From the sequence record OM632671.1: a stretch of 64,000 nucleotides of DNA. One strand, written 5' to 3'. The position numbers were made by a program, and so were the translations under genes. Each line of letters begins with the position of its first letter. Position 1 is the stretch's first letter. This document shows, piece after piece, positions 1,969-47,315 of the stretch. Under the pieces are notes generated by a model. The model did not search any database. It was not told where the DNA came from and saw only the letters and a list, made by a program, of their open reading frames with translations. The DNA is from Escherichia phage BEU50.

Positions 1969-2005
1969 GTTTACAACTAAGTAGGACTATGATATAGTAG
2001 TCCTA
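1969..2005 (+). promoter_or_regulatory. Early sigma70-type promoter with inverted repeat (GTTTAC -35, TGaTATAGT extended -10, TAGGACTA/TAGTCCTA arms)
   Basis: GTTTAC 1969-1974, TATAGT 1993-1998, 8-bp inverted repeat 1982-1989 and 1998-2005. Confidence 0.6.
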
Positions 2006-2024
2006 TCTAAAAGAGGATAACATC

Positions 2025-2288
2025 ATGAAATTTAAATTTTTCTACGCAAAACATAAAGTAACAGGCGAATTTGTTTCAATGTACAACACTGCAGATGACG
2101 AAGGGATGATTTATACCCATTTGGGTCTATCTCATTGGGACTCGGACGTGCCTTATATGTCATCTGAAGCCGAAATAACTCGTTTAGTTAATGGACATAT
2201 GAACGACCATTTTGGTGTTATTCTTTCTAAAGACCTTAAAGAGGTTATCAACAAAGGATATATGGAACTTGCGGAAGTTGAGATATGA
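2025..2288 (+). CDS. Hypothetical early protein
   Basis: 87-aa ORF directly downstream of promoter cassette with GAGGA RBS. Confidence 0.5.
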   Translation: MKFKFFYAKHKVTGEFVSMYNTADDEGMIYTHLGLSHWDSDVPYMSSEAEITRLVNGHMNDHFGVILSKDLKEVINKGYMELAEVEI

Positions 2289-2480
2289 GCTCTAAAATGT
2301 GGATAGGAATATGGTTGCTTAGTATCCCAATGATTTGTATAATATTTTCAATTGTGTTGAGGTACTTATGAAAAATGCACTTCTTATTGTACTAAGAACA
2401 ATTTGTGATACGGGTTTTTACATCGCATGTTCGTTCACTGGAACATGGTTGGCTTTAACATATTTTAATGTAATTTAATT

Positions 2481-2517
2481 GTTTACATCAAGGTAGGATT
2501 ATGGTATAGTAGTCCTA
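2481..2517 (+). promoter_or_regulatory. Early promoter cassette (GTTTAC, TGgTATAGT) with imperfect inverted repeat
   Basis: GTTTAC 2481-2486, TATAGT 2505-2510, arms TAGGATTA and TAGTCCTA; leader identical to that at 21855-21884. Confidence 0.6.
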
Positions 2518-2539
2518 TCAACAACATGAGGAAATCAAA

Positions 2540-2740
2540 ATGGCTAAGCTTTTTAAAGATGTTGAAATTGGTGAAAAATTTGTCCTGAATAATGGTCAGC
2601 AGCTTATTCGTGTAGCTTCTATAGCCGGACAAACTCATAACTGCATCGCCCCAACGTATTGGACCCGATTCTTTATTGAGGATGACACAGAATGTTTAAC
2701 TGTTGAAGAGCTTTTTGAACGTTCTGATATAACCGAATAA
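2540..2740 (+). CDS. Hypothetical early protein
   Basis: 66-aa ORF with GAGGAAATCAAAATG start context. Confidence 0.5.
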   Translation: MAKLFKDVEIGEKFVLNNGQQLIRVASIAGQTHNCIAPTYWTRFFIEDDTECLTVEELFERSDITE

Positions 2741-2742: not shown

Positions 2743-2779
2743 TTGTACAAACTCTTGAGAGCAGAGTATAATGCTCTCA
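2743..2779 (+). promoter_or_regulatory. Early promoter with palindrome (TTGTAC, TATAAT, TGAGAGCA/TGCTCTCA arms)
   Basis: TATAAT 2767-2772 lies between perfect 8-bp inverted repeats 2756-2763 and 2772-2779. Confidence 0.5.
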
Positions 2780-2816
2780 TGGATTACAAAAACATTAATC
2801 AATTGAGGAAATTAGC

Positions 2817-3263
2817 ATGTCCAAATATTTAACTCGTAAAGACCTTCTGGCAGTTGGCGGTGAAGTTGTTGCAGTAGTTCGTAATGGCGAATACGGTTCT
2901 GAAGTTTCTAAAGAGTTTCGTTCTCGTGAAGGTTTTTACTTCTTTGTTAAAGGTTCATCTGATTGGCGACAAGTAGCAGCACGATTCTTTGTAGGACGTC
3001 AACGTTCTAAACAAGGGTTGGATGCAATTCTTTCTCACATTCGTCAAGGCCGTTCGCAACTAGCCCGTACCATGGGCACTAACAATATTGAATATGATGT
3101 AATCTTTGTTGCAGCTAAGAATATGAAACCACTGACCACTGGTTATGGTAAAGGTCAATTGGCTCTGGCGTTCACTCGCAACCATACATCAGAATATCAA
3201 ACACTCACTGAAATGAACCGTCTTCTGGCAGATAATTTCAAATTCATTCTGCAGAGTTACTAA
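2817..3263 (+). CDS. ndd: Nucleoid disruption protein Ndd-like
   Basis: 148 aa; size and position (last sizeable gene before the tiny membrane ORFs and gene 52) match T4 ndd; remembered similarity only. Confidence 0.55.
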
Positions 3264-5048: not shown

Positions 5049-5126
5049 AGTTTACATGTGCTTCAAACATGATATTATAGACCTATCAAAACAAAACAAC
5101 CAAATTGGAGAAATAAAATGTCTAAA
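5049..5126 (+). repeat. Promoter/leader cassette, copy 1 (early promoter, leader, first codons ATGTCTAAA)
   Basis: About 90% identical to 5371-5446; GTTTAC 5050-5055, TGATATTAT extended -10, shared RBS GGAGAAATAAAATG. Confidence 0.7.
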
Positions 5127-5333
5127 ATGAAATTAACCCAAAACACAACTACTCGTTTCGGTAAAGTTAAACCTGGTATGAATGCTCCCCGTAAAGCACT
5201 TGTTGAAGAATTAAATTTCTTAGAAGTTGAAATCAATTCTTTAGTGGTTCGCGGTTCAAATGGACATCGTTTAGAAAAGCTTCGTTCTAAAAAGGCAAAA
5301 CTTATTGGCCTTATTAAAGAAATGAGTTTGTAA
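5118..5333 (+). CDS. Hypothetical small basic protein
   Basis: 71-aa ORF flanked by the duplicated promoter/leader cassette. Confidence 0.5.
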   Translation: MSKMKLTQNTTTRFGKVKPGMNAPRKALVEELNFLEVEINSLVVRGSNGHRLEKLRSKKAKLIGLIKEMSL

Positions 5334-5370: not shown

Positions 5371-5446
5371 AGTTTACTTTTGCTTCAAACATGATATTAT
5401 AGACCTATCAAAACAAATACTAATTTGGAGAAATAAAATGTCTAAA
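5371..5446 (+). repeat. Promoter/leader cassette, copy 2 (upstream of motA)
   Basis: Direct repeat of 5049-5126 including the first three codons MSK. Confidence 0.7.
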
Positions 5447-7734: not shown

Positions 7735-7885
7735 TCTTCAGAACGTAGTAGAGGCCGAACGTGAGCGTGAGGCCTTAGTCTATAATGAATTATTAGCTCT
7801 GTTCTTAGCCTTACACTCGTACGAACAGGAAGACTACATTGATTACGTTAAAAGCGTAGAAAAAGCCGTTTACAATCAACACTGA
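7724..7885 (+). CDS. Hypothetical small protein
   Basis: 53-aa ORF from internal ATG 7724 with AAGGAA RBS; overlaps previous ORF end. Confidence 0.3.
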   Translation: MSHNLQNVVEAEREREALVYNELLALFLALHSYEQEDYIDYVKSVEKAVYNQH

Positions 7886-7931
7886 TAATGGTACTATATC
7901 CATATCAACTAAGTGGAATGAATAAAACGTT

Positions 7932-8204
7932 ATGAATAAAGACATTGAAATCGTACGTGAAATTATTACTATTGCTTCTATTTTGATTAAATTCTCTAGG
8001 GAAGATATTGTTGAAGACCGAGCGAGTTTCATCGGTTTCTTGAATGAGATTGGAATTAAAAAAGATGGTCGGCAGCTAAATCAGAATTCGTTCAGAAAAC
8101 TAATTACAAATTTAACTGCCGAAGAAAAGAAAACACTGATTAGTGAATTCAATGAAGGTTTTGAAAATATTTATCGTCATTTAGCGATGTATTCTAACAA
8201 CTAA
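7932..8204 (+). CDS. asiA: Anti-sigma70 protein AsiA
   Basis: 90 aa, MNKDIEIVREIITIASILIKFSREDIVE closely matches T4 AsiA. Confidence 0.85.
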   Translation: MNKDIEIVREIITIASILIKFSREDIVEDRASFIGFLNEIGIKKDGRQLNQNSFRKLITNLTAEEKKTLISEFNEGFENIYRHLAMYSNN

Positions 8205-9455: not shown

Positions 9456-12400
9456 TTATGCTAAACGAACGATATAGTTAAAAGCAACGTTTTTAACTGT
9501 GTTTTCTGTATTTCCTGTGGCATTTACAGTTATTGTATGTCCATGGGAACCAATTGCAACAGTATGCGTATGAGCACCAATACCTACCGAATGGGTATGA
9601 GCACCGATACCCACAGTATGAGCATGGTTACCCGTAGCGCTAGTAGTTCCTGACCAACTATGGGTGTGGGCACCGTCTGAAGAAGTTTTGGCCATATTCG
9701 ACGATGCAGTAGCACCGCTCACGGATCCAGTGATTTTAGCGTTGCCGTTTGGACCCGCACTATTGTATCCATCATAGAATATGCTAGTGGGTACGACGCC
9801 TTGTATCTGGGGGCCTGAACGCGCGTGTTGGTGAGCTCCTGCGGAACTAGTATTACCACTCACTGTATGGTTATGGTTGCCAGTGGTATTACTGGTCTTA
9901 GTACCATAATCAAAGCTTGAAGTCGTTTTGCTACCATAATCAAAACTAGAAGTGGTCTTAGTACCCAAATCTGTGTTTGATGCACTTGCGCTATGGCTAT
10001 GTGACTTAACACCGTCTGCTTCTGTACTTAATACAGCACGCCCGGATGGTTTACCCTTGATAGTTTGACCACGCATATCAGGCAGAGCACCGGAAGGATA
10101 CACCACAGCTAACTTAGGATACAAGCCAGCATCAAATGTTTGACCTTCCATTATGGCATAACCTTCAGGAGGTGTATCAGTAGGCCAAGGAATCGGAGCA
10201 CCAATTGGATAACTCGACACAATATCTGTCTTAAGGTTATTTATTGTGGTATTCAAGTTAGCAAAATTACCAGAACCACCGGTGATATTACCATCAGTAC
10301 CAAAAGTGGCAGCACCGGCAATAATTTTACCAGCAGCACGGAAATCACCAGTGCGACGGAATTCCCAACTTAAATCAGTGCCACCAGTACTGGTGCCTTG
10401 GTGGTAATGAACACGGAAATCTCCTTGATTAATTAATGTCCCGATAGAATAAGTGCTATCACCTTGCACATAACGTTGTTTAACAATAGGAATATATTCA
10501 GAAGTAGCAGTACGCTCTATATTCATATAGATTGGAGCTCTGGAGTTTGCGTCATTCTGAGATGCAAATGAACCACAACCTGCTGGGCGAACTCCATCAG
10601 AAGCCTCAATATCTATATAAGCATTTTGTCCTAATTGCATACGGTAATTAGGAGAAATGCGACTATTACTAGTAACAACAACAAGTTTGTTATCATTGTC
10701 CACTGTAATCATATTACCGCCAGCTCCATCATCGCCTAACGTGACAGAATGACGCATTTGTACCATACCATTATTAAGACTAATACTTAATGGACGGAGA
10801 TTGCTTATTCCACCTGATTCTCCAGCATCTTTAGGAGTCGGGATAATATGCAATGCCGCTTCAGAACGACGGAAAATAGCGCCGTATTCAGCATTCCAAA
10901 TTCTTAATGCATCAGCTGTTCCACCGAATTTAGCTTGTCCAGTAATAGAAGAACCACCTTGAACAAACAATCCATTATTCATTGTAACGTTGCCAACTAG
11001 AGTGCTTAATCCGTTAACTCTAAGACTTCCGTCGGTTATTAAGCTTCCTCTAGCATTAACCTGTCCATTGAACTGAGTTACAACAGGCCCAGTAGTTTCA
11101 GAGCCACTTGGAGCCACACGCTGTGAATAAAAATAATATCCTTGCCCATCTGATACTTCAAAAACCGTTTCACGATTACGATCGCCAGATGCGTTAAATG
11201 AATTACCCCATGCTTTAACAGTTACATAGCTTTTATTCTGACCAGCACGAGTACCGCCTTCCCACAAAATTTGCTTAGTGCCATCAATACCTGAAGCTGC
11301 TTTAAAAACTAGAGAAGCATTAGTTCCATCACCATTAAAATATAATCCATTATTAAGTTTTAATGTTTGAACAGAAGCGATGGTACCATCAGCACGCAAA
11401 TTTAACGAATTTGAACCGGTTTTAATATCTAAAATGCCAGGCTCAACAAGAAGCCCATCACCCATACTAATGGACATACGACCCGTGCCACGGAAATAGT
11501 GATACATTTTAGAATTACTGCTATAACCGATATGAGTTTGACCATCACCATTATTATTACCATCAACATCGGTACGCGCAGTAAACATTGCTTGGTTGTT
11601 ATTTGGGTAATCCCAAGTAGTACCAGAATCGCGGCTATAACCGACCATCAATTTCTTAGTGCTGTTAATACCTTTATTCAAAATGGTAGCGGATGAAATA
11701 CCGTTAGCCATGAAATCAATAACACCGTCGCGGACCCATTTAATACCGGTGTCGTTATCACCAATTGCAATACCTATAGAAATCGCAGAATCTAAAGGAT
11801 AACGTCCATTTGTACCATTATCAGGAAGACCTACCGAAATCGATTTACCTGCAGTAATACGACCGGAGGTATCAAACGCCCATTGGAAAGATTCCGGGCC
11901 TACACCTGTCCACCAAGAAATTTCTTGTGGCTTACCTTTTCGGCAATCGGCAATTTCATGGAAAATACTTGATGCACTTGATGCACGCAATTTACGCAAA
12001 TAGTTTAAACCGTTAGTAGTATTATCAGAACCATCAGCCGGTGGGTTATAAACCCAAGTAGGTAAAGAAACCCAATCATATCCAATGTTAGCATTAGCTA
12101 CAAATCTTTTTGTACTAAAATTAATATTTTTAGTAACAATTTCAGGACCGGTGATAATACCATTAGCAGAGTTTATATTGCCTGAAGCAGAAATATTACC
12201 GGTACGAACTTCAATACTACCGGAATCTACGATGAAATTACCATTTCGATTAAAAGTCCAATATTTTGAAGTCCCGGTTTCATCAATATAATGGAATTTA
12301 AAACTACCTTCGTTTACTAATGTACCGGCAGAAAAAGTACCGTCTTTATAACGTTGCTTAATCAGAGGATGATATTCTGATACTGAGGTAGTTGAACTCA

Positions 12401-13438: not shown

Positions 13439-13446
13439 TATTTATA
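13439..13446 (-). promoter_or_regulatory. Late promoter TATAAATA upstream of gene 36
   Basis: Plus-strand TATTTATA gives TATAAATA on the minus strand 25 bp upstream of gene 36 ATG. Confidence 0.5.
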
Positions 13447-13471
13447 CAAAAATGGGAGACCGAAGTCTCCC
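13447..13471 (-). terminator. Intrinsic terminator after gene 35 (GGGAGAC-TTCG-GTCTCCC plus U-run)
   Basis: Perfect 7-bp stem with UUCG loop followed by ATTTTTG on the minus strand. Confidence 0.5.
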
Positions 13472-13476
13472 TAAAT

Positions 13477-14612: not shown

Positions 14613-17600
14613 TTATTCAATCCACTCGAATTTAACAGATTTATTCACAGGGTCTGGAATAATGCGGACATTACCAATCCTTAAGAAATCCCTTATTGTC
14701 AAGTTTCCGACTGTTGCATTATCAGAAGGTAAAGCACCAATATCAGAAGGTTGAGGAGGGTTTCCACCATCAAATACCTGAACAAAACTCGACCAAGAAT
14801 TTTTGGTTTTCTGCCATGTACGTGTCCAACGGGTTGTACGTGCTTCTGGAGTTGTTGGATAAGTAATCCAATCTTGGTAAAGTGAATCAAGTGTATTACC
14901 AAACTGAGTCAATGTACCAGGAGATTTAACTTCTTCGCCACGTTCTAAGTATGGAAGCCCAGTCACTTCATTAGTTTTTTCAACCATTTTAAAATAACCT
15001 GGGAACTGGTTATAAGTGGCTGAATCGTTAATATCGATTGACCAGAATCCTACTGTATCAGATGTTGGTGCGCGGGTGTATAAATCAGATGTTTTATTGC
15101 CCTGAGAACGAATTCTCGAGTTAACAGTCAAACCACCTGAATTTATAGTAGCACCTTTGGCAATGATTAAGCTTTCACCAATTGTGACTTGACCGGATGC
15201 ATTATTAATAGCTAAAGGACGTAATCCATTAAATCCACCAGTTTGGTCACCAGAAGCAGTTAACATGAAATAGGTGCTGCCCCCATCATTGCGAATAAAG
15301 AATCCGTAATCACCACTAATTGCTCTGAAAGCATTTGCAGACTTGCTAATGAATTCACCATTGGCTGTAACTGAACGACCAAATGTTGCAACGCCATTAA
15401 CATTCATCAAACCGGAAGCATTAATGTTTATTGGCATCACAGTACCATTAATGCTAAACGCTATATTCCCAGCTTTATTACGTTGAGAATAAAAGTGATT
15501 AGATGTTTCATCACCAACTTCAAATACAGTAGAACGTGTTGTATCTGAACCACCACCAAATTCATTTCCCCAAACTCTGATAGTCATCGTCTGTGCTGGG
15601 TTAGTTCCAGTTTGAGGTCCTTTCTCAAAAATCAGACGAGTTGCCGTTCCAGTATTAGAAATAGTTAATGTACTATTTGCCGAAACTGAACCACCAAACG
15701 TAGCAGTACTAGATGATACAAGAGGGGCACTCAGATTCGTTTGTTGGGTTAAGGTTAGTGAACCATTAACCGTCTGTGCAATATCCCTACGAATGAACTG
15801 AGATGAATCTAGGCCATCTAATAAATTTGCGTCAGCAGCTTTAGCTTTCAATGGCAAATAGTTAGCAAGTACACGGTTTAATTCATATGGAGATATAGCA
15901 TAGCTATTTTTCTCATATGATTCTAAAGGTTGTGTTGAACCAACTGTATCATTACCAACAAATGTAATAGAACCGGATGAAGTTTTAACGAATCCGCGAA
16001 TTGCTGTAGTAGCAGCCCATGTTGGTTCGTTCTGGACAATCCATTTTAAATTCTTAGGAGATACAGCAGTATTAGCAGAAGTTCCTGTTACAGTTTCAGC
16101 CTGAGTAGCAACCTTAATTACGCCTTCAGACGTTTCAGTGGACTTAGTCCCTAAAAGCTTTTTAGGAGTAATAAGAACATCATCTAAAGTTCCTGCATTA
16201 GATTCTGCCTGAGTCGCTACGCGAAGTGTACCACGTTGTGTTTCATTTGCTTTAGAAATATCAAGAGTATAATGGTTCCACAAGGTTCCTTCTTCAATAA
16301 GTCCGGAATCAGAATTAACACTGGTACGGTCAGAAGAATCAAAATGAGTTTTAATTTTCAGTGGAGTCGAGATACGAGTATCATCAGTTCCAGTATCAAA
16401 TTCAACTTGCGTAGCAAGTTCGGCTATGCCGGATAATCCTTCCGTAGCTTTCCTATCATTTAACGTCTTAGGCGTTACTGCACGTGTATAATCAGTCCCA
16501 GCATTAGTTTCTGCTTGCGTAGCAATTTCAATTAAACCAATACGTCCATCAGTAGAAGTTTTCTTATGTAGTGTTTCAGGAGTTACTACAGCGTGAGAAT
16601 AACCTGCTTGAGATTGTCCAGCAATTACTTCACTATCAACAGCTAAAATTACTGCACCTTGTTGAGCATAAGTTGCTTTATATTGGTCAAGGGCTTTAGG
16701 AGAAATAGTTAAATTATTTACGGTTTTATTATAAACGTTAGTGCCTGCGGCCCCACGAGTTTCAGCAGGAGTAGCAGAAGTAGTTGATACATATTTAACT
16801 ATACCAGATAGTGTTTCAGAACCCTGACGTGCCTGCAATTTCTTAGGTGTAATAATCGTTGTGTCATCAAGACCAGCATCGGTTTCAGTCTGAGTAGCAA
16901 TTTCAGCAAGACCGCGACGAGTTTCAGTTGCTGTACGCTCATTTAGTTTTTTAGGCGTAACAATAGTATCGTCCACAAATGATGATGTGGAATTCTGGTT
17001 AACTTGTGCTGTTGTAGCAATTTTAGCGATACCACGTCGAGCTTCAGTTGCTGTACGATTTGCCAACGTTTCAGGAGTAATAGCCACTTCTTTAGCTGGA
17101 GTATTCTCTAAATCAACATTTGCCTGTGCCTGAGTTGCAAGAGCAATAACACCTAAACGAGCTCGTGTAGCATCAGTTCCAGCATCAACACGTTCTACTG
17201 TAGGGACGTTTTGTTGAACAACCCAGTAACTTGTACCAGCAACGGTGTCTTCGATATACGCTAATTCTAATACAGGAACATATGAAGTAGTGCCATTGAA
17301 TTCTAGTTCAGTAACAGAGACCCATTGAGCATCGGGTGGATATTCAGAACGTTTAGGGAACTGAAGTAATGCAACAGAAGAAGCAATTGTATCACCTTCG
17401 GCAGCTTTAATTTTTACTGTTTGGCCTTTACGCATGTAGTTCATTGAAATTTTAACAGTATCACCGGTCAAAATTCCTGTAGGAAGCGTAAGGTTAATAG
17501 TTTCTGCTGTAGCGTTATTTGTACCAAAAATAAGAACTTCTTCATTTGGGCGAATATTTGAATCTGTACGGATAATACGAAGACGTGATTTCTGGTCGCC

Positions 17601-18529: not shown

Positions 18530-18559
18530 GTTTACGCTTTCAAATGAGTGTGTTACTAT
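18530..18559 (+). promoter_or_regulatory. Early promoter for rnh (GTTTAC, TGtTACTAT)
   Basis: GTTTAC 18530-18535, extended -10 TGTTACTAT 18551-18559. Confidence 0.5.
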
Positions 18560-18591
18560 AGACAAGTTGACTAACTGAACAAGAGGTTCAT

Positions 18592-19509
18592 ATGGATTTA
18601 GAAATGATGTTGGATGAAGATTACAAAGAAGGTATTGCACTTGCCGACTTTAGTAACATTGCATTGGCAGCCGCATTAAACAACTTTGAAGACGGCGATA
18701 AAATTACTGTTCCAATGGTTCGCCATGTAATCTTGAATTCAATTCGTAAAAACGTAGTGATGTTCCGTAAGCAAGGCTATACAAAATTTGTATTGTGTAT
18801 GGATAATGCTACTTCAGGTTATTGGCGACGTGACTTTGCTTACTATTACAAGAAAAATCGTAAAACCGATCGTGAAGCTTCAAAGTGGGATTGGGAAGGA
18901 TATTTTACTGCACTCCATCAAGTTGTTGATGAGATTAAGAAATACATGCCATACGTTGTAATGGATATTGACAAGTATGAAGCAGATGACCATATCGGTG
19001 TATTAACTAAATATTTGTCATTAGCTGGTCATAAGGTATGTATTGTTGCATCAGATGGTGACTTTACACAATTACACAAATATCCTAACGTTAAACAGTG
19101 GTCGCCACCACAGAAAAAATGGGTTAAAATTAAGAACGGTTCTGCTGAAATTGATTGCATGACTAAAATTCTTAAAGGTGACCGTAAAGACGGCGTTGCA
19201 TCTGTTCGAGTTCGTGGCGACTTCTGGTTTACCAGAGTTGATGGTGAACGAACTCCAAGCATGAAAACATCAATTATTGAAGCAATTGCTAACGACCGTT
19301 CTCAAGCTGAAGTATTATTAAGTGCAGAAGAATATAAACGGTATCAAGAAAATTTGGTTCTCATTGATTTTGATTATATCCCTGATAATATTGCTTCAAC
19401 CATTATAGAGTATTATAACTCATATAAACCACAACCTAAAGGCAAGATTTATTCATACTTTGTAAAATCTGGTCTTTCTAAATTAACAAGTGTAATTAAT
19501 GAATTCTGA
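18592..19509 (+). CDS. rnh: RNase H (5'-3' exonuclease)
   Basis: 305 aa, same size as T4 RNase H, FEN-family acidic motifs; synteny. Confidence 0.9.
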   Translation: MDLEMMLDEDYKEGIALADFSNIALAAALNNFEDGDKITVPMVRHVILNSIRKNVVMFRKQGYTKFVLCMDNATSGYWRRDFAYYYKKNRKTDREASKWDWEGYFTALHQVVDEIKKYMPYVVMDIDKYEADDHIGVLTKYLSLAGHKVCIVASDGDFTQLHKYPNVKQWSPPQKKWVKIKNGSAEIDCMTKILKGDRKDGVASVRVRGDFWFTRVDGERTPSMKTSIIEAIANDRSQAEVLLSAEEYKRYQENLVLIDFDYIPDNIASTIIEYYNSYKPQPKGKIYSYFVKSGLSKLTSVINEF

Positions 19510-20868: not shown

Positions 20869-21771
20869 ATGTTTAAACGTAAATCTACTGCTGACCTCGC
20901 TGCTCAAATGGCTAAACTGAACGGTAACAAAGGTTTCTCTTCAGAAGATAAAGGCGAATGGAAGCTGAAGCTAGATGCATCAGGTAATGGTCAAGCGGTA
21001 ATTCGTTTCTTGCCAGCAAAAACTGATGATGCACTACCATTTGCAATTCTTGTTAACCACGGTTTCAAGAAAAATGGTAAATGGTATATTGAAAATTGCT
21101 CTTCTACACACGGCGATTATGACTCTTGTCCTGTATGTCAGTACATTAGTAAAAATGACCTGTACAATACCAACAAAACTGAATATTCTCAACTGAAACG
21201 TAAAACTTCTTATTGGGCTAATATTCTGGTTGTTAAAGACCCACAAGCTCCAGATAATGAAGGTAAAGTATTCAAATATCGTTTCGGTAAAAAGATTTGG
21301 GACAAAATCAATGCAATGATTGCAGTCGATACTGAAATGGGTGAAACTCCTGTTGATGTAACTTGCCCATGGGAAGGTGCTAACTTTGTGCTGAAAGTTA
21401 AACAGGTTTCTGGTTTCAGTAACTACGATGAATCTAAATTCCTGAATCAATCTGCGATTCCAAACATTGATGATGAATCTTTCCAGAAAGAATTGTTCGA
21501 ACAAATGGTTGACCTTTCTGAAATGACTTCTAAAGATAAGTTCAAATCGTTTGAAGAATTGAATACTAAATTTAATCAAGTTCTTGGTACTGCCGCTCTT
21601 GGTGGTGCAGCAGCCGCAGCAGCTTCTGTTGCAGATAAAGTTGCTTCTGACCTTGATGATTTTGATAAAGACATGGAAGCCTTTAGTTCTGCAAAAACTG
21701 AAGATGACTTCATGAGCTCTACCTCATCCTCTGATGATGGCGACCTCGATGACCTGTTAGCTGGTCTATAA
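20869..21771 (+). CDS. 32: ssDNA-binding protein gp32
   Basis: 300 aa, [23 protein letters not shown]..., acidic C-terminus; T4 gp32 301 aa. Confidence 0.9.
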
Positions 21772-21777
21772 TAAATT

Positions 21778-21800
21778 GGGAGACTTCGGTCTCCCTTTTG
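21778..21800 (+). terminator. Intrinsic terminator (GGGAGAC-TTCG-GTCTCCC plus T-run)
   Basis: Perfect stem-loop with UUCG loop then TTTT after gene 32. Confidence 0.6.
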
Positions 21801-21826: not shown

Positions 21827-21858
21827 GTTTACTTCTTCCCTGGATGTGTTACTATAGA
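21827..21858 (+). promoter_or_regulatory. Early promoter cassette (GTTTAC, TGtgTTACTAT)
   Basis: GTTTAC 21827-21832; -10 TACTAT 21850-21855; downstream leader identical to 2510-2545. Confidence 0.55.
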
Positions 21859-21884
21859 CCTATCAACAACATGAGGAAATCAAA

Positions 21885-22277
21885 ATGGAAATCGGAAAAT
21901 CTTATATCATTAACCCTTTATTTAAAGATGACTTTGTTCAAGAAGCACCACACAATAACGCTAAGATGTTAAAATTGATTGAGCTCCACGGGCCCAGTTT
22001 TGTTGTAAACGGAATGGAACCTGATTATGATAGCGATACGCCAAACGTAGTAAGTGTAACTATGGAAGATGGTACTGTATGTTCTGCCGGTGGTGAAATT
22101 GAAACTTATTTTGAGATTTATCCTGACGAGTTCAAATACTTTACTGAGGTAGATTTAGTAAAGTCTCAAACTACTAACGAAGGTATAGCTTTAGGTGTAA
22201 CAAAAATCCATTGTATCGTAGATGAAACCAACGTCGACGAAATCATCAATCTTTTGCAAAAAACTTTTAAAAAGTAG
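21885..22277 (+). CDS. Hypothetical protein (frd.3 position)
   Basis: 130-aa ORF between gene 32 and frd. Confidence 0.5.
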   Translation: MEIGKSYIINPLFKDDFVQEAPHNNAKMLKLIELHGPSFVVNGMEPDYDSDTPNVVSVTMEDGTVCSAGGEIETYFEIYPDEFKYFTEVDLVKSQTTNEGIALGVTKIHCIVDETNVDEIINLLQKTFKK

Positions 22278-22314
22278 TGTACAATCAGATAGGGTTATGT
22301 TATAGTAGCCCTAT
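22277..22314 (+). promoter_or_regulatory. Early promoter cassette with inverted repeat (GTGTAC, TGtTATAGT)
   Basis: -10 TATAGT 22301-22306 between GATAGGGTTA and TAGCCCTATC arms. Confidence 0.5.
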
Positions 22315-22338
22315 CAAATAAAAGTGAAGGAGAATAAA

Positions 22339-22581
22339 ATGAGATTGCAACGCCAGAGTATCAAAGATTCTGAAGTTAGAGGTAAATGGTACTTCAACAT
22401 CGTTGGTAAAGATGTTGAACTCCTTGAACAAGCCGAAGAAGCTTTACGTGAAATGGGTTGGAACGAAGAATGTGATGGATGTCCACTCTACGAAGATGGT
22501 ATATCATCCGGATTCTGGATTTATCACTCGGATGTCGACCAATTTAAAGCTGATTGGAAAATTGTGAAAAAGTCTGTTTGA
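22339..22581 (+). CDS. Hypothetical protein
   Basis: 80-aa ORF from ATG 22339 with GGAGAATAAAATG context. Confidence 0.45.
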   Translation: MRLQRQSIKDSEVRGKWYFNIVGKDVELLEQAEEALREMGWNEECDGCPLYEDGISSGFWIYHSDVDQFKADWKIVKKSV

Positions 22582-23417: not shown

Positions 23418-23962
23418 AACATTATCAATACCTGATTAATGATATCCTAGAAAATGGCTACGAAACAGACGACCGTACAGGCACAGGAACAATTGCCCTG
23501 TTCGGAACTAAATTACGTTGGGACCTGACTAAAGGATTCCCTGCAGTAACAACTAAGAAATTAGCATGGAAAGCTTGTATTGCCGAACTACTGTGGTTCA
23601 TGTCTGGTTCTACCAATGTTAATGATTTGCGTATTCGTACTCATGGTAGTCTTATTCAAGGTAAAACTATTTGGGACGACAACTATGAAAATCAGGCAAA
23701 AGACCTTGGATATCATAGCGGCGAACTTGGTCCTATTTATGGTAAGCAATGGCGTGATTTTGGTGGTGTAGACCAATTGGTCAAAACTATCGACCGTATT
23801 AAAGCTCTTCCTAATGATCGTCGTCAAATAGTTTCTGCATGGAACCCAGCCGAAATTGACCAAATGGCTCTTCCTCCTTGCCATATGTTCTATCAGTTCA
23901 ATGTGCGTAATGGTCATCTTGATTTACAATGGTATCAACGCAGTGTAGATGTTTTCTTAGGT
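23414..23962 (+). CDS. td: Thymidylate synthase, exon 1
   Basis: 183 codons ending ...VDVFLG; intron follows, beginning TAATTTAGGCC as in T4 td. Confidence 0.85.
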
Positions 23963-24978
23963 TAATTTAGGCCTAGGTATAAGGTGACTTATACTTGTAA
24001 TCTATCTAAACGGGGGACCTCTCTAGTAGACAATCCCGTGCTAAATTGTAGGACTACCCTTTAATAAATACTTCTATATAAAAAGAGGTGTTTATGAAAA
24101 GCGGAATTTATCAGATTAAAAACACTTTAAACGGTAAAGTGTATGTTGGAAGTGCTAAAGATTTTGAGAAAAGATGGAAGAGACATTTTAAAGACCTTGA
24201 AAACGGTGTTCACTCTTCTATAAAATTTCAAAGGTCTTTTAATAAACATGGTAATGTTTTTGAATGCTCTGTACTGGAAGAAATTCCATATGAGAAAGAT
24301 TTGATTATTGAACGAGAAAATTTTTGGATTAAAGAGCTAAATTCTAAAATTAATGGATATAATATTGCTGATGCGTCTTTTGGCGATGTGCTTTCAAATC
24401 ATCCATTAAAAGAAGAAATTGCTAAGAAACGAGCTGAAACTGTTAAAGCTAAGATGCTTAAGCTTGGTCCTGATGGTCGGAAAGCTCTTTATGGTAAACA
24501 CGGAAGTAAAAATGGCCGATGGAATCCAGAAAACCACAAGTTTTGTAAATGCGGTGTTCGCATACCATCTTCGGCCGATACTTGTGGAAAGTGCCGAAAA
24601 CGTTCAGGTGAAAATAACCCGTTCTTTAATCACAAACATTCAGAAAAAACTAAAACTAAACTATCTGAAAAGATGAAAGGCAAAAAGCCAGCTAACATCA
24701 AAAAGATTTCATGCGATGGGATTATTTTTGAATGTGCAGCCGATGCGGCTAGACATTTTGAAATTTCATCAGGATTAGTTACTTACCGTGTAAAATCTGA
24801 TAAGTGGAATTGGTTCTACATAAATGCCTAACGACTATCCCTTTAGGGAGTAGGGTCAAGTGACTCGAAACGATAGACAACTTGCTTTAACAAGTTGGAG
24901 ATATAGTCTGCTCTGCATGGTGACATGCAGCTGGATATAATTCCGGGATAAGATTAACGACCTTATCTGAACATAATG
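23963..24978 (+). ncRNA. Group I self-splicing intron in td
   Basis: Sequence closely resembles the T4 td intron 5' and 3' ends (UAAUU.AGGCCU...UAUAAGGUGACUUAUACUUG ... ACAUAAUG); exon 1 plus exon 2 give a 286-aa protein, the T4 td length. Confidence 0.85.
24094..24831 (+). CDS. I-TevI: I-TevI-like GIY-YIG homing endonuclease (intron-encoded)
   Basis: 245 aa from ATG 24094; GIYQIKN...KVYVGS GIY-YIG motif, zinc finger CKCG...CGKC, C-terminal HTH; near-identical in architecture to T4 I-TevI. Confidence 0.85.
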   Translation: MKSGIYQIKNTLNGKVYVGSAKDFEKRWKRHFKDLENGVHSSIKFQRSFNKHGNVFECSVLEEIPYEKDLIIERENFWIKELNSKINGYNIADASFGDVLSNHPLKEEIAKKRAETVKAKMLKLGPDGRKALYGKHGSKNGRWNPENHKFCKCGVRIPSSADTCGKCRKRSGENNPFFNHKHSEKTKTKLSEKMKGKKPANIKKISCDGIIFECAADAARHFEISSGLVTYRVKSDKWNWFYINA

Positions 24979-25290
24979 CTGCCGTTCAACATTGCCTCGT
25001 ACGCTGCCTTGACGCATATTGTAGCGAAGATGTGTAATCTTATCCCGGGTGATTTAGTGTTCTCAGGCGGCAACACGCATATCTACAGCAATCATGTAGA
25101 ACAATGCAAAGAAGTTCTTCGTCGTGAACCTAAAGAGTTATGTTCTCTTGAAATTAATTGGCCTAGTAATTTTGAGAATTGGCCTACAAAAATCCAAATG
25201 GACTGGGTTACTGGAACGATGACACATTCTGATTTCGTTCTTAAAAATTACGAATCTCATCCAACTATCAAAGCTAAAATGGCGGTATAA
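24979..25290 (+). CDS. td: Thymidylate synthase, exon 2
   Basis: Begins LPFNIASYAALTHIVAKMCNLIPGD..., ends KMAV; continues td frame after intron. Confidence 0.85.
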   Translation: MPFNIASYAALTHIVAKMCNLIPGDLVFSGGNTHIYSNHVEQCKEVLRREPKELCSLEINWPSNFENWPTKIQMDWVTGTMTHSDFVLKNYESHPTIKAKMAV

Positions 25291-25574: not shown

Positions 25575-25597
25575 AACGGGATAAATACTATCCCGTT
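25575..25597 (+). other. Perfect 9-bp inverted repeat (AACGGGATA/TATCCCGTT) upstream of HNH gene
   Basis: Arms 25575-25583 and 25589-25597 with 5-nt spacer; TGTATAAT -10-like box at 25562-25569. Confidence 0.4.
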
Positions 25598-25620
25598 GAT
25601 ACTACAAAGTGGATTATACT

Positions 25621-26256
25621 ATGGATTATTTAAAAATATATAAAAACTTGGTAAATAAAGAAAGAAATTTTGAAGATATAGATGGTGAATGGCATCATAT
25701 AATCCCAAAATGTTTAGGTGGCACCAATGAGTCATACAATCTAGTTAAATTAACATATTCAGAACATTATTTGGCTCATCTTCTTTTATTAAAAATATAT
25801 CCGAACAATTTAGGTTTAGCAACCGCGGTTAATTTAATGAGTTCTAGAAATAATAAAGAATTTGGATGGACTAGAGCAAAAATGGTTGATTTGCTTAAAG
25901 GGCGAAAATTAGACCAAAAAACAAAAGATAAAATATCTCGTTCCAAACTAGGACATGTTAAATCTGAAGAGACTAAAGAAAAGATACGAAATTCTTTATT
26001 AGGTAAAAAACGTGGACAATACAATATAAAAATTAAATCAAAAATTTCTAAAGGAGTCCCATTAAAAGAATCAACTAAGCAAGCTATTTCTAATGCTATG
26101 ATAGGAGCTAAGAATCCATTTGCAAAGAAAGTAATTATAAACGACGTAATATATGATACATTAAATGAAGCGTCAATAATTTTATCTATGAGCACCCAAA
26201 CGGTTAGACGCCGTCTAAAATCATCAAATTATCCAACATGGAATTATTATGTATAA
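25621..26256 (+). CDS. Free-standing HNH homing endonuclease
   Basis: HNH motif EWHHIIPKCLGGTNESYNLVKLTYSEHYLAH; two NUMOD3-like repeats (KDKISRSKLGHVKSEETKEKIRNSLLGKK); C-terminal HTH-like tail. Confidence 0.7.
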   Translation: MDYLKIYKNLVNKERNFEDIDGEWHHIIPKCLGGTNESYNLVKLTYSEHYLAHLLLLKIYPNNLGLATAVNLMSSRNNKEFGWTRAKMVDLLKGRKLDQKTKDKISRSKLGHVKSEETKEKIRNSLLGKKRGQYNIKIKSKISKGVPLKESTKQAISNAMIGAKNPFAKKVIINDVIYDTLNEASIILSMSTQTVRRRLKSSNYPTWNYYV

Positions 26257-28513
26257 TTTTAAAGTAGTGAAAAATTCAGGTGTATCCCAAAATTTTGATG
26301 CACAGAAAATTATTCAAGTCTTAACTTGGCAATGTGAAGGAACACAAATTGACCCATATGAATTGTACGAAGAAATTAAGACCCATCTTGTCGATGGTAT
26401 GAGCACCAAAGATATTCAGAAGATTTGTATTAAAGTTGCAGCTAACTCGATTTCTGTCGAAGAACCTGATTATCAGTATGTCGCCGCCAAAGGGCTAATG
26501 TTTGCACTTCGTAAAGATGTATATGGGCAGTTTGAACCTCCTGCTTTTATCGACCATATCTCGTATTGTGTTAATGAAGGCAAATACGACCCTGAGTTGT
26601 TGTCTAGATATTCTGCAGAAGAAATCATTTATCTCGATTCACAGATTAAACATGAACGAGACTTTGACCTGACTTATGCTGGTGCTATGCAGCTTAAAGA
26701 AAAATATCTAGTTAAAGATAAAACAACTGGGAAGATTTATGAAACTCCACAGTTTGCTATCATGGCTATTGGCATGGCCTTACACCAAGACGAAACTCAT
26801 GACCGTTTGAAACATATTATTCGTTTTTATGATGCCGTTTCTACTCATCAAGTTTCATTGCCAACCCCAATTATGGCAGGTGCTCGTACTCCGACTCGCC
26901 AGTTCTCTAGTTGTGTAGTTATTGAAGCCGGTGATTCGTTAAAATCTATTAACAAAACTTCAGCATCAATTATTGAATATATTTCTAAACGAGCTGGTAT
27001 CGGTATCAACGTTGGTATGCTTCGTGCAGAAGGTTCTAAGATCGGTATGGGTGAAGTTCGACATACGGGTGTTATTCCATTCTGGAAACATTTCCAAACT
27101 GCAGTAAAATCTTGTTCTCAAGGTGGTATTCGTGGTGGTGCTGCTACAGCGTATTATCCGATGTGGCACTTAGAAGTAGAGAACCTATTAGTTCTGAAAA
27201 ATAACAAAGGCGTGGATGAAAACCGTATTCGACATATGGACTACGGAATTCAGATTAATGACCTCATGATGGAACGCCTTGGTAAAAATGATTATATTAC
27301 TTTATTTAGCCCTCACGAAATGTCAGGCGAACTATACTACTCGTTCTTTGAAGATCAAGATAAATTCCGTGAGCTTTATGAGAAAGCTGAAAAAGACCCA
27401 ACAATCAGAAAGAAAAGAATCAAAGCACTAGAACTCTTTGAATTGTTCATGACTGAACGTTCTGGCACCGCTCGAATTTATCCGCAATTCGTTGATAACA
27501 CGAACAACTACACTCCATTTATTCGTGAAAAAGCTCCAATTCGTCAGAGTAACTTATGTTGTGAAATCGCTATTCCAACTAATGATGTGAATGGTCCTGA
27601 TGCTGAAATTGGTTTATGCACATTATCTGCATTCGTGTTAGATAAATTTGATTGGCAAGACCAAGATAAAATTAATGAACTTGCTGAAGTACAAGTACGT
27701 GCACTTGATAACCTGTTAGACTATCAAGATTATCCGGTTCCAGAAGCTTTAAAAGCTAAAAAGCGTCGAAACCTCGGCGTTGGTGTTACGAACTATGCTG
27801 CATGGTTAGCTTCTAACTTCGCTTCATATGAAGACGCTAACGATTTGACTCATGAATTGTTTGAGAGATTGCAATATGGCCTTATCAAAGCATCAATCAA
27901 ACTCGCCAAAGAAAAAGGATGTTGCGAGTATTATTCAGACACTAAATGGTCTAGAGGCGAATTACCTATCGACTGGTACAATAAAAAGATTGACCAAATC
28001 GCAGCCCCGAACTACGTCTGTGACTGGGAAGAACTTCGAGCTGAACTCAAAGAACATGGAATTCGTAACTCAACGTTGTCTGCACTCATGCCTTGTGAGT
28101 CAAGCAGTCAAGTATCGAACTCTACAAACGGGATTGAGCCCCCACGCGGTCCAGTAAGTATTAAAGAATCTAAAGAAGGCAACTTCCGTCAGGTTGTTCC
28201 TAATATCGAACATAACATGAGTCTTTACGATTATGCGTGGAAACTTGCTAAGAAAGGTAATAAACCTTATTTGACCCAAGTTGCTATCATGTTGAAATGG
28301 GTGTGCCAATCTGCTTCTGCTAATACTTACTATGACCCTGCAGTATTTGAGAAAGGTAAAGTGCCAATGTCAGTAATGCTTGACGATCTACTTTACTTCT
28401 GGTACTTTGGCGGAAAAAACCTCTACTATCATAACACTCGTGATGGGTCTGGTACAGACGACTATGAATTAGAAACACCTAAAGCAGAAGATTGTTCTGC
28501 TTGTAAGCTTTAA
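26249..28513 (+). CDS. nrdA: Ribonucleotide reductase large subunit NrdA
   Basis: 754 aa, class Ia RNR alpha motifs (NLCCEIAIP, GxGxxN); T4 NrdA 754 aa. Confidence 0.9.
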   Translation: MYNFKVVKNSGVSQNFDAQKIIQVLTWQCEGTQIDPYELYEEIKTHLVDGMSTKDIQKICIKVAANSISVEEPDYQYVAAKGLMFALRKDVYGQFEPPAFIDHISYCVNEGKYDPELLSRYSAEEIIYLDSQIKHERDFDLTYAGAMQLKEKYLVKDKTTGKIYETPQFAIMAIGMALHQDETHDRLKHIIRFYDAVSTHQVSLPTPIMAGARTPTRQFSSCVVIEAGDSLKSINKTSASIIEYISKRAGIGINVGMLRAEGSKIGMGEVRHTGVIPFWKHFQTAVKSCSQGGIRGGAATAYYPMWHLEVENLLVLKNNKGVDENRIRHMDYGIQINDLMMERLGKNDYITLFSPHEMSGELYYSFFEDQDKFRELYEKAEKDPTIRKKRIKALELFELFMTERSGTARIYPQFVDNTNNYTPFIREKAPIRQSNLCCEIAIPTNDVNGPDAEIGLCTLSAFVLDKFDWQDQDKINELAEVQVRALDNLLDYQDYPVPEALKAKKRRNLGVGVTNYAAWLASNFASYEDANDLTHELFERLQYGLIKASIKLAKEKGCCEYYSDTKWSRGELPIDWYNKKIDQIAAPNYVCDWEELRAELKEHGIRNSTLSALMPCESSSQVSNSTNGIEPPRGPVSIKESKEGNFRQVVPNIEHNMSLYDYAWKLAKKGNKPYLTQVAIMLKWVCQSASANTYYDPAVFEKGKVPMSVMLDDLLYFWYFGGKNLYYHNTRDGSGTDDYELETPKAEDCSACKL

Positions 28514-28567: not shown

Positions 28568-29218
28568 ATGAGTACAGTTTTTAACACACAACAAGTCGAT
28601 GTTTTGAATGAACCGATGTTCTTTGGTTCTGGTCTTGGCCTCGCACGGTATGATATTCAGCGTCATAAAGTTTTTGAAGAGCTTATCGAAAAGCAGCTCT
28701 CGTTCTTTTGGCGTCCCGAGGAAGTAAACTTGATGTTGGATTCGGCCCAGTTTAATAAGCTTCCACAGTTCCAACAGGACATCTTTACCAACAACCTTAA
28801 GTATCAATCATTATTAGATTCTATCCAAGGTAGAGCACCATCTGCGGTACTTATGTCATTGCTTTCAGACCCTTCATTAGATACATGGGTTGCTACATGG
28901 ACTTTCAGTGAAACTATTCACTCTCGTTCATATACTCATATTATGCGAAATCTTTATACAGATCCATCGAAGGTGTTTGATGAGATTGTATTAGATGAAG
29001 CTATTATGAAGCGTGCCGAATCTATCGGACGATATTATGATGATGTTCTGGTTAAAGCTCGTTATTGGGAAAACGCTAAAGAATTTGTAGAATTAGCTAA
29101 AGAATCTCCTGATGCCGACTTTCGTTTAAACCAAGCTATTAAACAAGAAGCCGAAGCTAAACGTGCTTTAATGAAATCTCTTTACCTCTGTTTGCACGTT
29201 ATTAATGCCTTAGAAGCT
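28568..29218 (+). pseudogene. nrdB: nrdB 5' fragment (ribonucleotide reductase small subunit, truncated after codon 217)
   Basis: MSTVFNTQQVD... through LYLCLHVINALEA matches class Ia R2 up to the conserved NALEA; expected continuation (IRFY...) absent; frame then runs through antisense gene 23 sequence. Confidence 0.75.
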
Positions 29219-29518
29219 AACCATACCCATAACTGCTGGCCCAATCTGGGTTACTGCACCAGAGGTTTGACCTGCTGCGATGTTCTGAGCATTATAACCG
29301 TGGTCACCACCAATTTCAGCTTCGGTCAAGAAAGAACCAAATGCCTGAGCGATTTTCTCGTCTTTATATTCAGGGGATACTTCGAAATCTTTTTCCTGGT
29401 TTTCGAAGATTTTAGCGATAATAGCCTGCTTGCTATTAGCGATTTCCGGCAGGCCTTCACCTTCCAGCAGTTCTTTCCATTTGTCTACGAGCTGAGCTTT
29501 AGTTTTGATAGTAGTCAT
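29219..29518 (-). pseudogene. 23: Major capsid protein gp23 N-terminal fragment (first 100 codons only)
   Basis: MTTIKTKAQLVDKWKELLEGEGLPEIANSKQAIIAKIFENQEKDF...GPAVMGMV matches T4 gp23 residues 1-100, then SF-stop where T4 continues RRAIPNL; no remainder of gene 23 in the window. Confidence 0.8.
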
Positions 29519-29535
29519 TTGTGTTAACCTTTAAA

Positions 29536-30348
29536 TTAGAAACGAGATGCGACTTTCGCATATAAACTTACATTAGAATTCTGTTCTACCTGAGTTGTGG
29601 TAGTGTCAACTGCTTCGGCAACAAAATTAAGACCGGCAGCGTCATTGTCAACTGTATTTATACTTTCGGTAATAGCGGCTTCTTCTTTAGTAGAACCTTT
29701 AACCATTTCTACAATAGCAGTTAACTTAGTACCAAATGCGTCAGAATAATCCATACCTTCAACCAGGCCAATAACTTTTTCTTTCTGAGATTCAGTCAGG
29801 TCTTTTACGCTTTCATTAATAGCGGTTTCACGCTGAACGTAATTGATATATGCATCACGTTTGGTAACTTCTTCGAACAATCGAGCGGTTTCTTCTTTAT
29901 GTTCGGCCAGCTCTTCTTCCATTTCTGCTACAACATCTACAGATTCTTCTGGAACAACAACGTTATGTTCAACAAACAGTTCTTTCAGACCACCAAGCAT
30001 GGATTCGAACAAATCAGCTTTAATGCCTTTATCAACTGCGATTTGGTTTTCTGCGAGCCATTCTTTTGCAAGATGGTCTAGGAATTTAGAAGCTTGTTCA
30101 GCCAATTTTTTATCAGCTTTCTCTTCAGCATCTTCTTTAGCCTTTTCAACTTCTTCTTCGGCCTTTTCGGCGATGGCTTTGATATGAGATTCAGCCAGTT
30201 TGACTGCTTCCTGCTTAACGGTGGCTTCGAATACAGTGCTGAAATTAGCTTTAACGTCCGGAGACAGTTCTACTGATTCGAAAACACTATTAAGAGCAAC
30301 TGAAGTCTCGATGTTCTGAGCTTCTTTCAAAAGTTGTTCTTTGATCAT
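29536..30348 (-). CDS. 22: Prohead scaffold protein gp22
   Basis: 270 aa, acidic coiled-coil-rich; synteny upstream of 23. Confidence 0.85.
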   Translation of the reverse strand: MIKEQLLKEAQNIETSVALNSVFESVELSPDVKANFSTVFEATVKQEAVKLAESHIKAIAEKAEEEVEKAKEDAEEKADKKLAEQASKFLDHLAKEWLAENQIAVDKGIKADLFESMLGGLKELFVEHNVVVPEESVDVVAEMEEELAEHKEETARLFEEVTKRDAYINYVQRETAINESVKDLTESQKEKVIGLVEGMDYSDAFGTKLTAIVEMVKGSTKEEAAITESINTVDNDAAGLNFVAEAVDTTTTQVEQNSNVSLYAKVASRF

Positions 30349-47275: not shown

Positions 47276-47283
47276 TATTTATA
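47276..47283 (-). promoter_or_regulatory. Late promoter TATAAATA for gene 9
   Basis: Plus-strand TATTTATA about 30 bp upstream of gene 9 ATG. Confidence 0.5.
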
Positions 47284-47287
47284 GACA

Positions 47288-47312
47288 CAAAAATGGGAGC
47301 CCGAAGGCTCCC
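47288..47312 (-). terminator. Intrinsic terminator after gene 8 (GGGAGCC-TTCG-GGCTCCC plus U-run)
   Basis: Perfect 7-bp stem with UUCG loop followed by TTTTT on the minus strand. Confidence 0.5.
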
Positions 47313-47315
47313 TAA

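Follow-up and report, generated by a model that had tools for sequence, protein, structure and literature searches.

Two early expression cassettes of the RB69-like Escherichia phage BEU50 share a 30-nt leader, probably through exchange between cassettes

It is known that the genomes of RB49/phi1, T4/PST and KVP40/nt-1 harbor elements called PeSLs (promoter-early stem-loops), in which an AT-rich region is followed by a sigma-70-like early promoter, a stem-loop (mostly located between the two promoter boxes or overlapping the -10 with G-T pairs), a Shine-Dalgarno (SD) sequence and the ATG (Arbiol 2010, PMC2839356; Comeau 2014, PMC4122927). PeSLs cluster in variable regions and act as crossover points; the ndd region and the internal-protein locus, affected in T4/PST as well, served both papers as illustrations (PMC2839356, PMC4122927). 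Mapping in RB49 mini-circles placed the PeSL crossovers in the interval from the -10 to the SD/ATG (PMC2839356). RB69-type phages, gene conversion and short-patch leader conversion are mentioned in neither of the two papers. Here, a stretch of 64,000 nucleotides (nt) from Escherichia phage BEU50 (sequence record OM632671.1; hereafter, the window), showing 97-98% identity to Mosigvirus (RB69-like, T4-type) genomes, was analysed. Two of its early expression cassettes share an exact 30-nt repeat that embeds the leader of two unrelated open reading frames (ORFs), the homologues of RB69 ndd.1 and frd.2.

The window cassettes contain the same parts as the PeSLs, in the same order, and they are likewise located in variable early regions, next to insertions or deletions (indels) between close relatives, with crossovers falling inside the element. 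They differ in the consensus, which is GTTTAC...TAnnnT plus a CCTATCAA box, and in the stem-loops at the -10, which lack a U-tract; moreover, the event proposed here is the exchange of a 14-30 nt patch of the 5' untranslated region (5'UTR) and not the indel of an ORF. A catalogue of RB69 regulatory signals also exists: Nolan et al. (2006) predicted 57 early promoters in this phage, with a C preference at -3 to -1 (PMC1524935), whereas the cruder scan adopted here disclosed 43-46 cassettes in the RB69 early regions (~128 kb). The window cassettes resemble the promoters of that catalogue in the GTTTAC at -35, the TAnnnT at -10, the A-rich upstream sequence and the location of many of them before novel small ORFs; as far as the catalogue itself goes, it deals with regulatory signals only, and the mutual identity, the mosaic structure and a role in recombination are not addressed in it (PMC1524935).

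The window contains two exact copies of the 30-nt string CCTATCAACAACATGAGGAAATCAAAATGG, located at 2514-2543 and 21859-21888; a first-pass annotation of the window had already reported the repeat, with coordinates one base off. In 100 dinucleotide-preserving shuffles of the window, no match to a 30-nt repeat was found, and none is expected by chance. The bases bordering the two copies are unlike on both sides (T/A upstream, C/A downstream), so that the identity is exactly 30 nt. Since the repeat begins 3 nt past the -10 hexamer and ends in ATGG, it comprises the discriminator (-3 to -1) and the start codon with the entire predicted 5'UTR between them, the promoter being excluded. The promoter parts, from the -35 to just before the repeat, are in fact alike at 21/33 positions (64%); thus, the "identical promoter-leader cassettes" of the first-pass annotation are identical in the leader, while the promoter half of that title is overstated. 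The start codons at the ends of the two copies open ORF 2540-2740 and ORF 21885-22277, identified as ndd.1 and frd.2, respectively, through their RB69 homologues, the latter being located immediately downstream of gene 32. As had been claimed, the products of the two ORFs are unrelated (best BLASTP E-value 0.024 over 17 residues). The features of the two loci are the following:

2451-2480, plus strand: AT-rich, UP-like stretch before the ndd.1 early promoter, 83% A+T in the 30 nt before the -35
2481-2510, plus strand: predicted ndd.1 early promoter, GTTTAC (or TTTACA at 2482) and TGG-TATAGT at 2505-2510, 10/12 in the sigma-70 scan, with an extended -10 TG
2492-2519, plus strand: stem-loop around the -10, GGTAGGATTAT / ATAGTCCTATC, found by the inverted-repeat scan, fold -14 kcal/mol, z = -2.2, with compensatory variants in other cassettes
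2514-2543, plus strand: copy 1 of the repeat, i.e., -3 to -1, 5'UTR with SD GAGG and ATGG of ndd.1; putative conversion recipient, minimal tract 2522-2535
2540-2740, plus strand: ndd.1 ORF, 66 amino acids (aa), RB69 homologue annotated as ndd.1
21778-21795, plus strand: gene 32 terminator hairpin, GGGAGACTTCGGTCTCCC then TTTT, 30 nt upstream of cassette 21827
21827-21855, plus strand: predicted frd.2 early promoter, GTTTAC, 17 nt, TACTAT, fitting the PST/T4 PeSL consensus TTTACW-N17-TAYWAT (PMC4122927)
21859-21888, plus strand: copy 2 of the repeat, the frd.2 leader; putative donor, and also junction of the ORF245c indel with respect to RB69
21885-22277, plus strand: homologue of frd.2, 130 aa, from the RB69 annotation

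The two loci belong to a set of 14 cassettes of one build, each lying on the early-gene strand immediately before an ORF, which are named here after their first position (1969, 2481, 2743, 5050, 5372, 7868, 18530, 21827, 22277, 60026, 60381, 63320, 63691 and 63904). In all 14, the 30 nt upstream have 63-83% A+T, as in the AT-rich region of PeSLs, and are followed by GTTTAC or a one-off variant ([G/A/T]T[G/T]TAC), a spacer of 17-18 nt and TAnnnT, often with TGn before it. A conserved AG(T/A)CCTATCAA box surrounds the expected start site; then come a short A/C-rich leader, an SD-like GGAG, GAGG or AGGA 5-10 nt before the ATG, and the ATG itself, located 56-74 nt from the -35. An independent sigma-70 scan gave 10/12 matches at 1970, 2482 and 2744; the promoter of cassette 21827 stays under the 9-of-12 cut-off of that scan. 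On the basis of consensus and position, the cassettes are probably, above all else, working early promoters and translation starts for the host RNA polymerase and ribosomes. Among the 13 catalogued cassettes, the longest exact strings shared from one cassette to another measure 37, 30, 23 and 21 nt; as a control, random 100-nt segments of the window have at most 11 nt in common. Two other leader families had been pointed out in the first-pass annotation. Leaders of the type TAGTCCTATCAAA...ATG are present at 60410-60450 and 63933-63964, although the second copy has GAGGAAAACAAAATG and not GGAGAAATAAAATG; the GACTTATCAAC(C/T)ACAGAGGAG leader was recovered, after a slight correction of the coordinates, at 63351-63371 and 63722-63742, and corresponds to repeat family D9 (97% identity over 31 nt). 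The remaining cassettes, and two hairpins that delimit gene replacements, are listed below:

1969-2027, plus strand: cassette upstream of ORF 2025, stem-loop GTAGGACTA/TAGTCCTAT, from the motif, inverted-repeat and fold scans
2743-2819, plus strand: cassette upstream of ndd, TTGTAC...TATAAT, stem-loop TGAGAGCA/TGCTCTCA, with a 90%-identical copy after frd.3
5050-5120, plus strand: cassette upstream of ORF 5118, with exact 37-nt and 22-nt blocks in common with the motA cassette
5372-5440, plus strand: motA cassette, direct repeat of 5050 at a distance of 322 nt
7868-7934, plus strand: asiA cassette, from the motif scan
18530-18594, plus strand: cassette upstream of ORF 18592 (rnh position), from the motif scan
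22277-22341, plus strand: cassette upstream of ORF 22339, stem-loop GATAGGGTTA/TAGCCCTATC, fold -16.3 kcal/mol, z = -4.6
60026-60092, plus strand: ipI cassette, stem-loop GGATGAT/ATCATCC, from the motif scan and fold
60381-60450, plus strand: trna.4 cassette, stem-loop TGATAGGACTA/TAGTCCTATCA, insertion site of extra internal-protein genes in relatives
62717-62748, plus strand: terminator-like hairpin, left border of the segment that is replaced in moskry, LF82-8 and ESCO47, repeated at 63260-63291
63260-63291, plus strand: second copy of this hairpin (91% identical), left end of the PhAPEC2/RB69 insertion
63320-63379, plus strand: o63377 cassette, the promoter type ahead of the gene differing among relatives
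63691-63753, plus strand: o63751 cassette, before an ORF that PhAPEC2 and ESCO47 lack (junction within the SD)
63904-63964, plus strand: frd.3 cassette, 86% identity to the ndd.1 cassette over 66 nt

The comparison with relatives (HX01, mobillu, AV111, RB69, a20, APCEc01, JQD51, moskry, LF82-8, p000y, PhAPEC2, RPN187 and ESCO47) revealed that the ndd.1 leader exists in five versions across six genomes, SF being the sixth of them. The flanks of this leader are nearly invariant: the preceding 33 nt match fully between the window and RB69, with 1-3 differences in the other four genomes, and the coding start of ndd.1, ATGGCTAAGCTT, is identical in 6/6. The versions are:

Window: CCTATCAACAACATGAGGAAATC
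RB69: CCTATCAAAACACGAGGAATAC
SF: ..GAGGAAAAC
HX01 and mobillu: CCTACTGAAACATGAGGAACAC
AV111: AATCACATCAAATCAAGAGGAAAAC

The window version coincides with the frd.2 leader, unchanged in a20, APCEc01 and JQD51. With respect to RB69, the window leader shows one inserted C and three substitutions, confined to 2522-2535 (14 nt) and all of them towards the frd.2 sequence. At full length, the window version of the leader was found in none of 50,697 phage records (best full-length match 96.2%) and is absent from IMG/VR, suggesting a recent, lineage-specific event. In AV111, the ndd.1 leader is that of LF82-8 frd.3, including the unusual AATCACATC, and is one base off the p000y frd.3 leader, while in RB69 a 38-nt segment extending from TATAGT to ATGG is the same in the ndd.1 and frd.3 cassettes. 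The ndd.1 leader thus appears to be repeatedly overwritten by leaders of other cassettes. Since relatives carry other leaders between near-identical flanks, and the frd.2 leader is constant in three of them, the 30-nt identity is best read as a putative ectopic conversion of 14-30 nt in which ndd.1 received frd.2 sequence, an event peculiar to this genome whose donor and direction we infer from the distribution among relatives.

The genes ndd.1 and frd.3 encode unrelated proteins and have homologous modules on both sides. Besides the likeness of their upstream cassettes, the promoter TT(G)TACAAACTCTTGAGAGCAGAGTATAATGCTCTC located downstream of both genes shows 90% identity over 51 nt between the window and a20, and 33 nt are identical in RB69. 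In the window, frd.3 adjoins e.6; in T4, it presumably lies beside frd and gene 32, as its name and the annotation notes indicate. The homologous flanks and the displaced frd.3 fit a movement of ORFs as cassette-bounded units, and a cassette-ORF-cassette arrangement of this kind would be compatible with the formation of mini-circles.

The first-pass annotation had also proposed that the cassettes provide homology for exchange and explain the mosaic content of small ORFs, an idea that the literature already contains under the name of PeSL-mediated modular shuffling (PMC2839356, PMC4122927). The breakpoint comparison that it had suggested was therefore carried out against the Mosigvirus relatives, and seven indels or replacements and one promoter swap were found to have at least one junction inside a cassette, the crossovers lying in common blocks. 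The clearest alignments concern ORF 5118-5333, embedded between the direct-repeat cassettes 5050 and 5372 and lacking in three relatives: in mobillu and AV111, the crossover that removed the ORF is located in the common TTGGAGAAATAAAATGTCTAAA, in RB69 in the common 37-nt TGCTTCAAACATGATATTATAGACCTATCAAAACAAA, and the two positions point to two independent events. RB69 harbors an extra ORF245c between gene 32 and frd.2, bordered on both sides by direct repeats ATCAACAAATGAG(A)GGAAA that correspond to the leader at 21859-21888, single-copy in the window. One or two extra internal-protein genes are found at cassettes 60026 and 60381 in LF82-8, RPN187, ESCO47 and RB69. The block 62751-63313, replaced in moskry, LF82-8 and ESCO47, ends in the repeated terminator hairpin and in the -35 of cassette 63320, and in PhAPEC2 and RB69 ~1.1 kb is inserted between 63286 and 63365. 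The loss of o63751 in PhAPEC2 and ESCO47 has its junction within the SD, and in RPN187 another ORF replaces o63751 and frd.3 between the same two cassettes.

Promoters are exchanged as well. The promoter ahead of o63377 is of the window/a20 type (also in RPN187), of the 21827 type (in p000y and ESCO47) or unrelated (in PhAPEC2), and the leader varies too. Promoter halves and leader halves reassort, the join being located at CCTATCAA; as an example, the ESCO47 cassettes 3620 and 3963 have a common leader, and 3963 and 4258 a common promoter. Overall, in the comparison with 12 Mosigvirus genomes, 11 of the 36 distinct alignment boundaries fall inside cassettes, which make up 6% of the early sequence, and are thus not consistently outside them (binomial p = 6e-6, a value that overstates the significance, given the mutual dependence of the boundaries and the need for any viable indel to terminate between genes). 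The outcome that would have contradicted the first-pass proposal was therefore not obtained, and the proposal is supported.

We consider it quite probable that these observations are, as a whole, best explained by early cassettes of the PeSL kind whose shared blocks serve ectopic recombination, with a frd.2 leader patch copied into ndd.1 and small ORFs shuffled by cassette exchange. The 30-nt repeat would be the 5'UTR and start-codon part of two T4-type cassettes. Since dozens of cassette copies with common blocks of 8-40 nt are available, they might also be used as ectopic homology by the very active recombination/replication machinery of the phage. The copying of a 14-30 nt patch of the frd.2 leader into the ndd.1 cassette, bounded by the common CCTATCAA and CAAAATGG blocks, would have given the 30-nt identity; recombination from cassette to cassette would delete, insert and swap the small ORFs between cassettes, and the same recombination would reassort promoter and leader halves.

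Several points weigh against this explanation. The other 25/36 boundaries fall outside the cassettes, at the td intron and the homing endonucleases (23961-24979 and 25597-26279), in the tRNA block and in diverged alleles, and not all differences in gene content thus involve cassettes. The enrichment test is partly confounded, most of the early intergenic DNA being cassette. The cassette anatomy, the leader identity, the polymorphism pattern and the positions of the junctions are seen directly in the sequences, while the direction and the mechanism of the proposed conversion are deduced from the distribution of leader versions among relatives. A tract of 14-30 nt with perfect flanks of only 8 nt is short for classical homologous recombination, and leaders may actually be exchanged by template switching, or through repair inside a longer imperfect heteroduplex. 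Lastly, the quality of the assembly is not beyond doubt, since the window contains a non-native join at ~29219.

This join also bears on the possibility that the assembler, or a polishing step, wrote the frd.2 leader into the ndd.1 locus. Across it (28900-30200), no related record is collinear with the window: 29219-30200, corresponding to gp22 and the start of gp23, is at least 99% identical in more than 140 genomes, 28900-29218 is nrdB, located elsewhere in those genomes, and the join is spanned by none of 774 records. In the ORF map, nrdA and nrdB on the plus strand run directly into gp22...gp53 on the minus strand, where we presume, from the T4 gene order, a gap of tens of kb. The phage might have a rearranged or defective genome, or the join might derive from scaffolding or assembly. 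The join is common to no related record, and the ndd.1 leader variant is likewise unique to this sequence, as an artefact would be; however, an internal patch of 14-30 nt with both flanks at the correct locus is an atypical assembler error, reads of at least 100 nt would not mis-map on a 30-nt match, and patch exchanges of this kind also occur in the independently sequenced AV111, RB69, p000y and ESCO47, which makes an artefact extremely unlikely. Functional convergence, in which both leaders independently reached the same optimal translation-initiation sequence without any exchange of DNA, finds some support in the common style of the cassette leaders (A/C-rich, unstructured, with an SD, an A-rich spacer and the ATG) and in the CCTATCAA box and AAAATG shared by many of them. 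Nevertheless, other cassettes have quite different leaders, and ndd.1 itself is preceded by four other ones in close relatives; the changes within 14 nt that separate the window from RB69 all go towards frd.2, after 33 identical nt, and AV111 has acquired at this locus the frd.3 leader of another lineage together with its AATCACATC variant. Convergence, then, has very little to recommend it.

An exchange of DNA might also be due to a dedicated mobile-element or site-specific mechanism, with the cassettes acting as sites for a specific recombinase or for a structure-specific nuclease, e.g., at the stem-loop. The geometry of the stem-loop is constant and maintained by compensatory changes, and some unrelated ORFs have cassettes on both sides, like mini-circle units; yet, cassettes devoid of a -10 stem-loop (5050/5372 and 21827) recombine as well, and the crossovers are scattered, the same deletion using the 37-nt promoter block in one case and the 22-nt SD/ATG block in another, and other events the SD, the CCTATCAA box or the end of a terminator. 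This scatter suggests general recombination or template switching on short common blocks rather than a site-specific enzyme, and we regard the latter as unlikely, even though the PeSL authors raised this possibility (PMC2839356). The cassettes recall the integron gene cassettes and the morons of lambdoid phages, i.e., small, self-contained gene units gained and lost between conserved genes. Integron cassettes require an integrase and attC sites, whereas the junctions described here are scattered over common blocks and imply no recombinase; a fixed crossover site of the integron type was not observed, with two positions used for the ORF 5118 deletion alone, and no recombinase has been identified near the cassettes, no search for one having been made. 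Morons, in turn, are not thought to move via their own regulatory sequences (PMC2839356).

The stem-loop deserves a separate description. It brackets the -10 in cassettes 1969, 2481, 2743, 22277, 60026 and 60381 (about half of the 14) and, more weakly, in 7868, with stems of 8-12 bp and RNA folds of -13 to -18 kcal/mol (z down to -4.6). Hairpins are located upstream of cassettes 5050, 5372, 21827 and 63320, and no convincing stem-loop was found in 63691, 63904 and 18530. A generic hairpin scan with TAnnnT in the loop (67 against 33 in shuffles, i.e., 2-fold) was too unspecific and was replaced by a promoter-anchored test. With this, 12/43 cassettes of the RB69 early regions displayed a -10 inverted repeat of at least 7 bp, against a mean of 0.65 and a maximum of 5 in 1000 spacer shuffles; in T4 (36 kb), 4/16 cassettes possess a -10 stem-loop, with quite different stem sequences. 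The geometry is nearly constant in Mosigvirus and T4, the loop comprising 3 nt along with the five initial bases of the -10, and the first pair involving T(-7). In an alignment of 23 such stem-loops, 9/10 pairs show changes on both sides, i.e., compensatory ones; this count is descriptive and carries no significance test, the 23 having been pre-selected to pair in that register. There are at least six unrelated stem sequences (RB69 L016-L018 and L011; T4 L019; window 1969, 2481, 2743, 22277 and 60381), and none is followed by a U-tract, which makes a role as terminator doubtful. The -10 inverted repeat had been considered as a new feature, and this was dropped, stem-loops that overlap the -10 with G-T pairs being the commonest PeSL subclass (Arbiol 2010, PMC2839356); apart from the PeSL papers, no publication on inverted repeats or cruciforms at the early promoters of T4 emerged from a search of the literature.

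A different kind of pairing was observed in some RB69 and T4 cassettes, where the spacer just after the -35 is complementary to the cassette's own SD region over 9-14 bp, e.g., TTCTCCTCTAGTTG / CAACTAGAGGAGAA. Pairing of at least 9 bp occurs in 5/43 RB69 cassettes (-35 at about 20523, 7429, 64920, 61362 and 145999), compared with 0.8% for swapped partners; the T4 cases are at about 65413 (denV), 62797 (regB) and 53943, and no strong complementarity was found in the window cassettes. Such pairing would sequester the SD in read-through transcripts and leave it free in those starting at the cassette's own promoter. As for SD-sequestering hairpins in the window, cassettes 21827 and 63320 can form folds in which UUCUUC pairs with the SD; these folds do not surpass those of shuffled sequences (z = +1.1 and -0.5), and the candidates were discarded. 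The stem-loop could expose the -10 in single-stranded form or distinguish read-through from promoter-proximal transcripts. On a more speculative line, which we put forward only tentatively, the fixed-geometry stem-loop, kept by compensatory changes in Mosigvirus and T4, might be a functional part of T-even early promoters and not a terminator; together with the anti-SD sequences of some spacers, it would make the cassettes self-insulated units, between which short-patch conversion would routinely swap the 5'UTRs of unrelated genes.

These data extend cassette shuffling of the PeSL type to the RB69-like genus, where, thanks to more than 100 near-identical genomes, individual recombination events can be read at base resolution. 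The mechanism is one already proposed, and no new question is opened by it; the detail that is absent from the two PeSL papers is that cassettes, besides moving ORFs, would replace stretches of 14-40 nt in one another's 5'UTRs, and a gene might thereby acquire a new translation start with both the gene and its promoter left intact. For the annotation and engineering of therapeutic T4-like phages, the cassettes would represent predictable hot spots of deletion and rearrangement.

At the ipI locus, the window harbors one internal-protein gene, LF82-8, RPN187 and RB69 two, and ESCO47 three. Repoila and colleagues reportedly described in 1994 the polymorphism of the internal-protein locus in T-even phages (cited in PMC4122927); the likeness concerns both the variable number and kind of genes and the exchange points located in conserved sequence around the gene starts. 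The difference is that the homology here runs from the cassette into the coding sequence: the internal-protein genes have the first ~22 nt in common, ATGAAAAC(C/A)TAT(A/C)AAGAATTTAT, encoding MKTYKEFI (60090-60112 in the window), which suggests that the recombination homology extends beyond the cassette. The boundary at 60112 is common to RPN187, ESCO47 and RB69.

Other variable segments were also observed. The td gene is split by an insertion with a homing-endonuclease ORF (24088-24831), and a second homing-endonuclease ORF (25609-26256) precedes nrdA; a20 carries both, whereas APCEc01, JQD51 and RB69 have neither. The tRNA region 60692-62398 is highly variable, with breakpoints outside the cassettes: the window contains two tRNA genes (Met and Arg), PhAPEC2 and ESCO47 three, and p000y and RPN187 ten, in place of ORF 61289-61804. 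In the region of the minus-strand tail-fibre genes, three 30-nt tandem units (9893-9993) and diverged direct repeats of 44-48 nt at multiples of about 108-375 nt (16068-17210) are found, together representing families D3, D5 and D7. Finally, the tetraloop hairpin GGGAG(A/C)C-(T/C)(T/G)(C/A)(G/A)-G(T/G)CTCCC is present in three copies with similar flanks (family D8), at 13439-13474, 21763-21798 and 47280-47315, the middle one being the gene 32 terminator.

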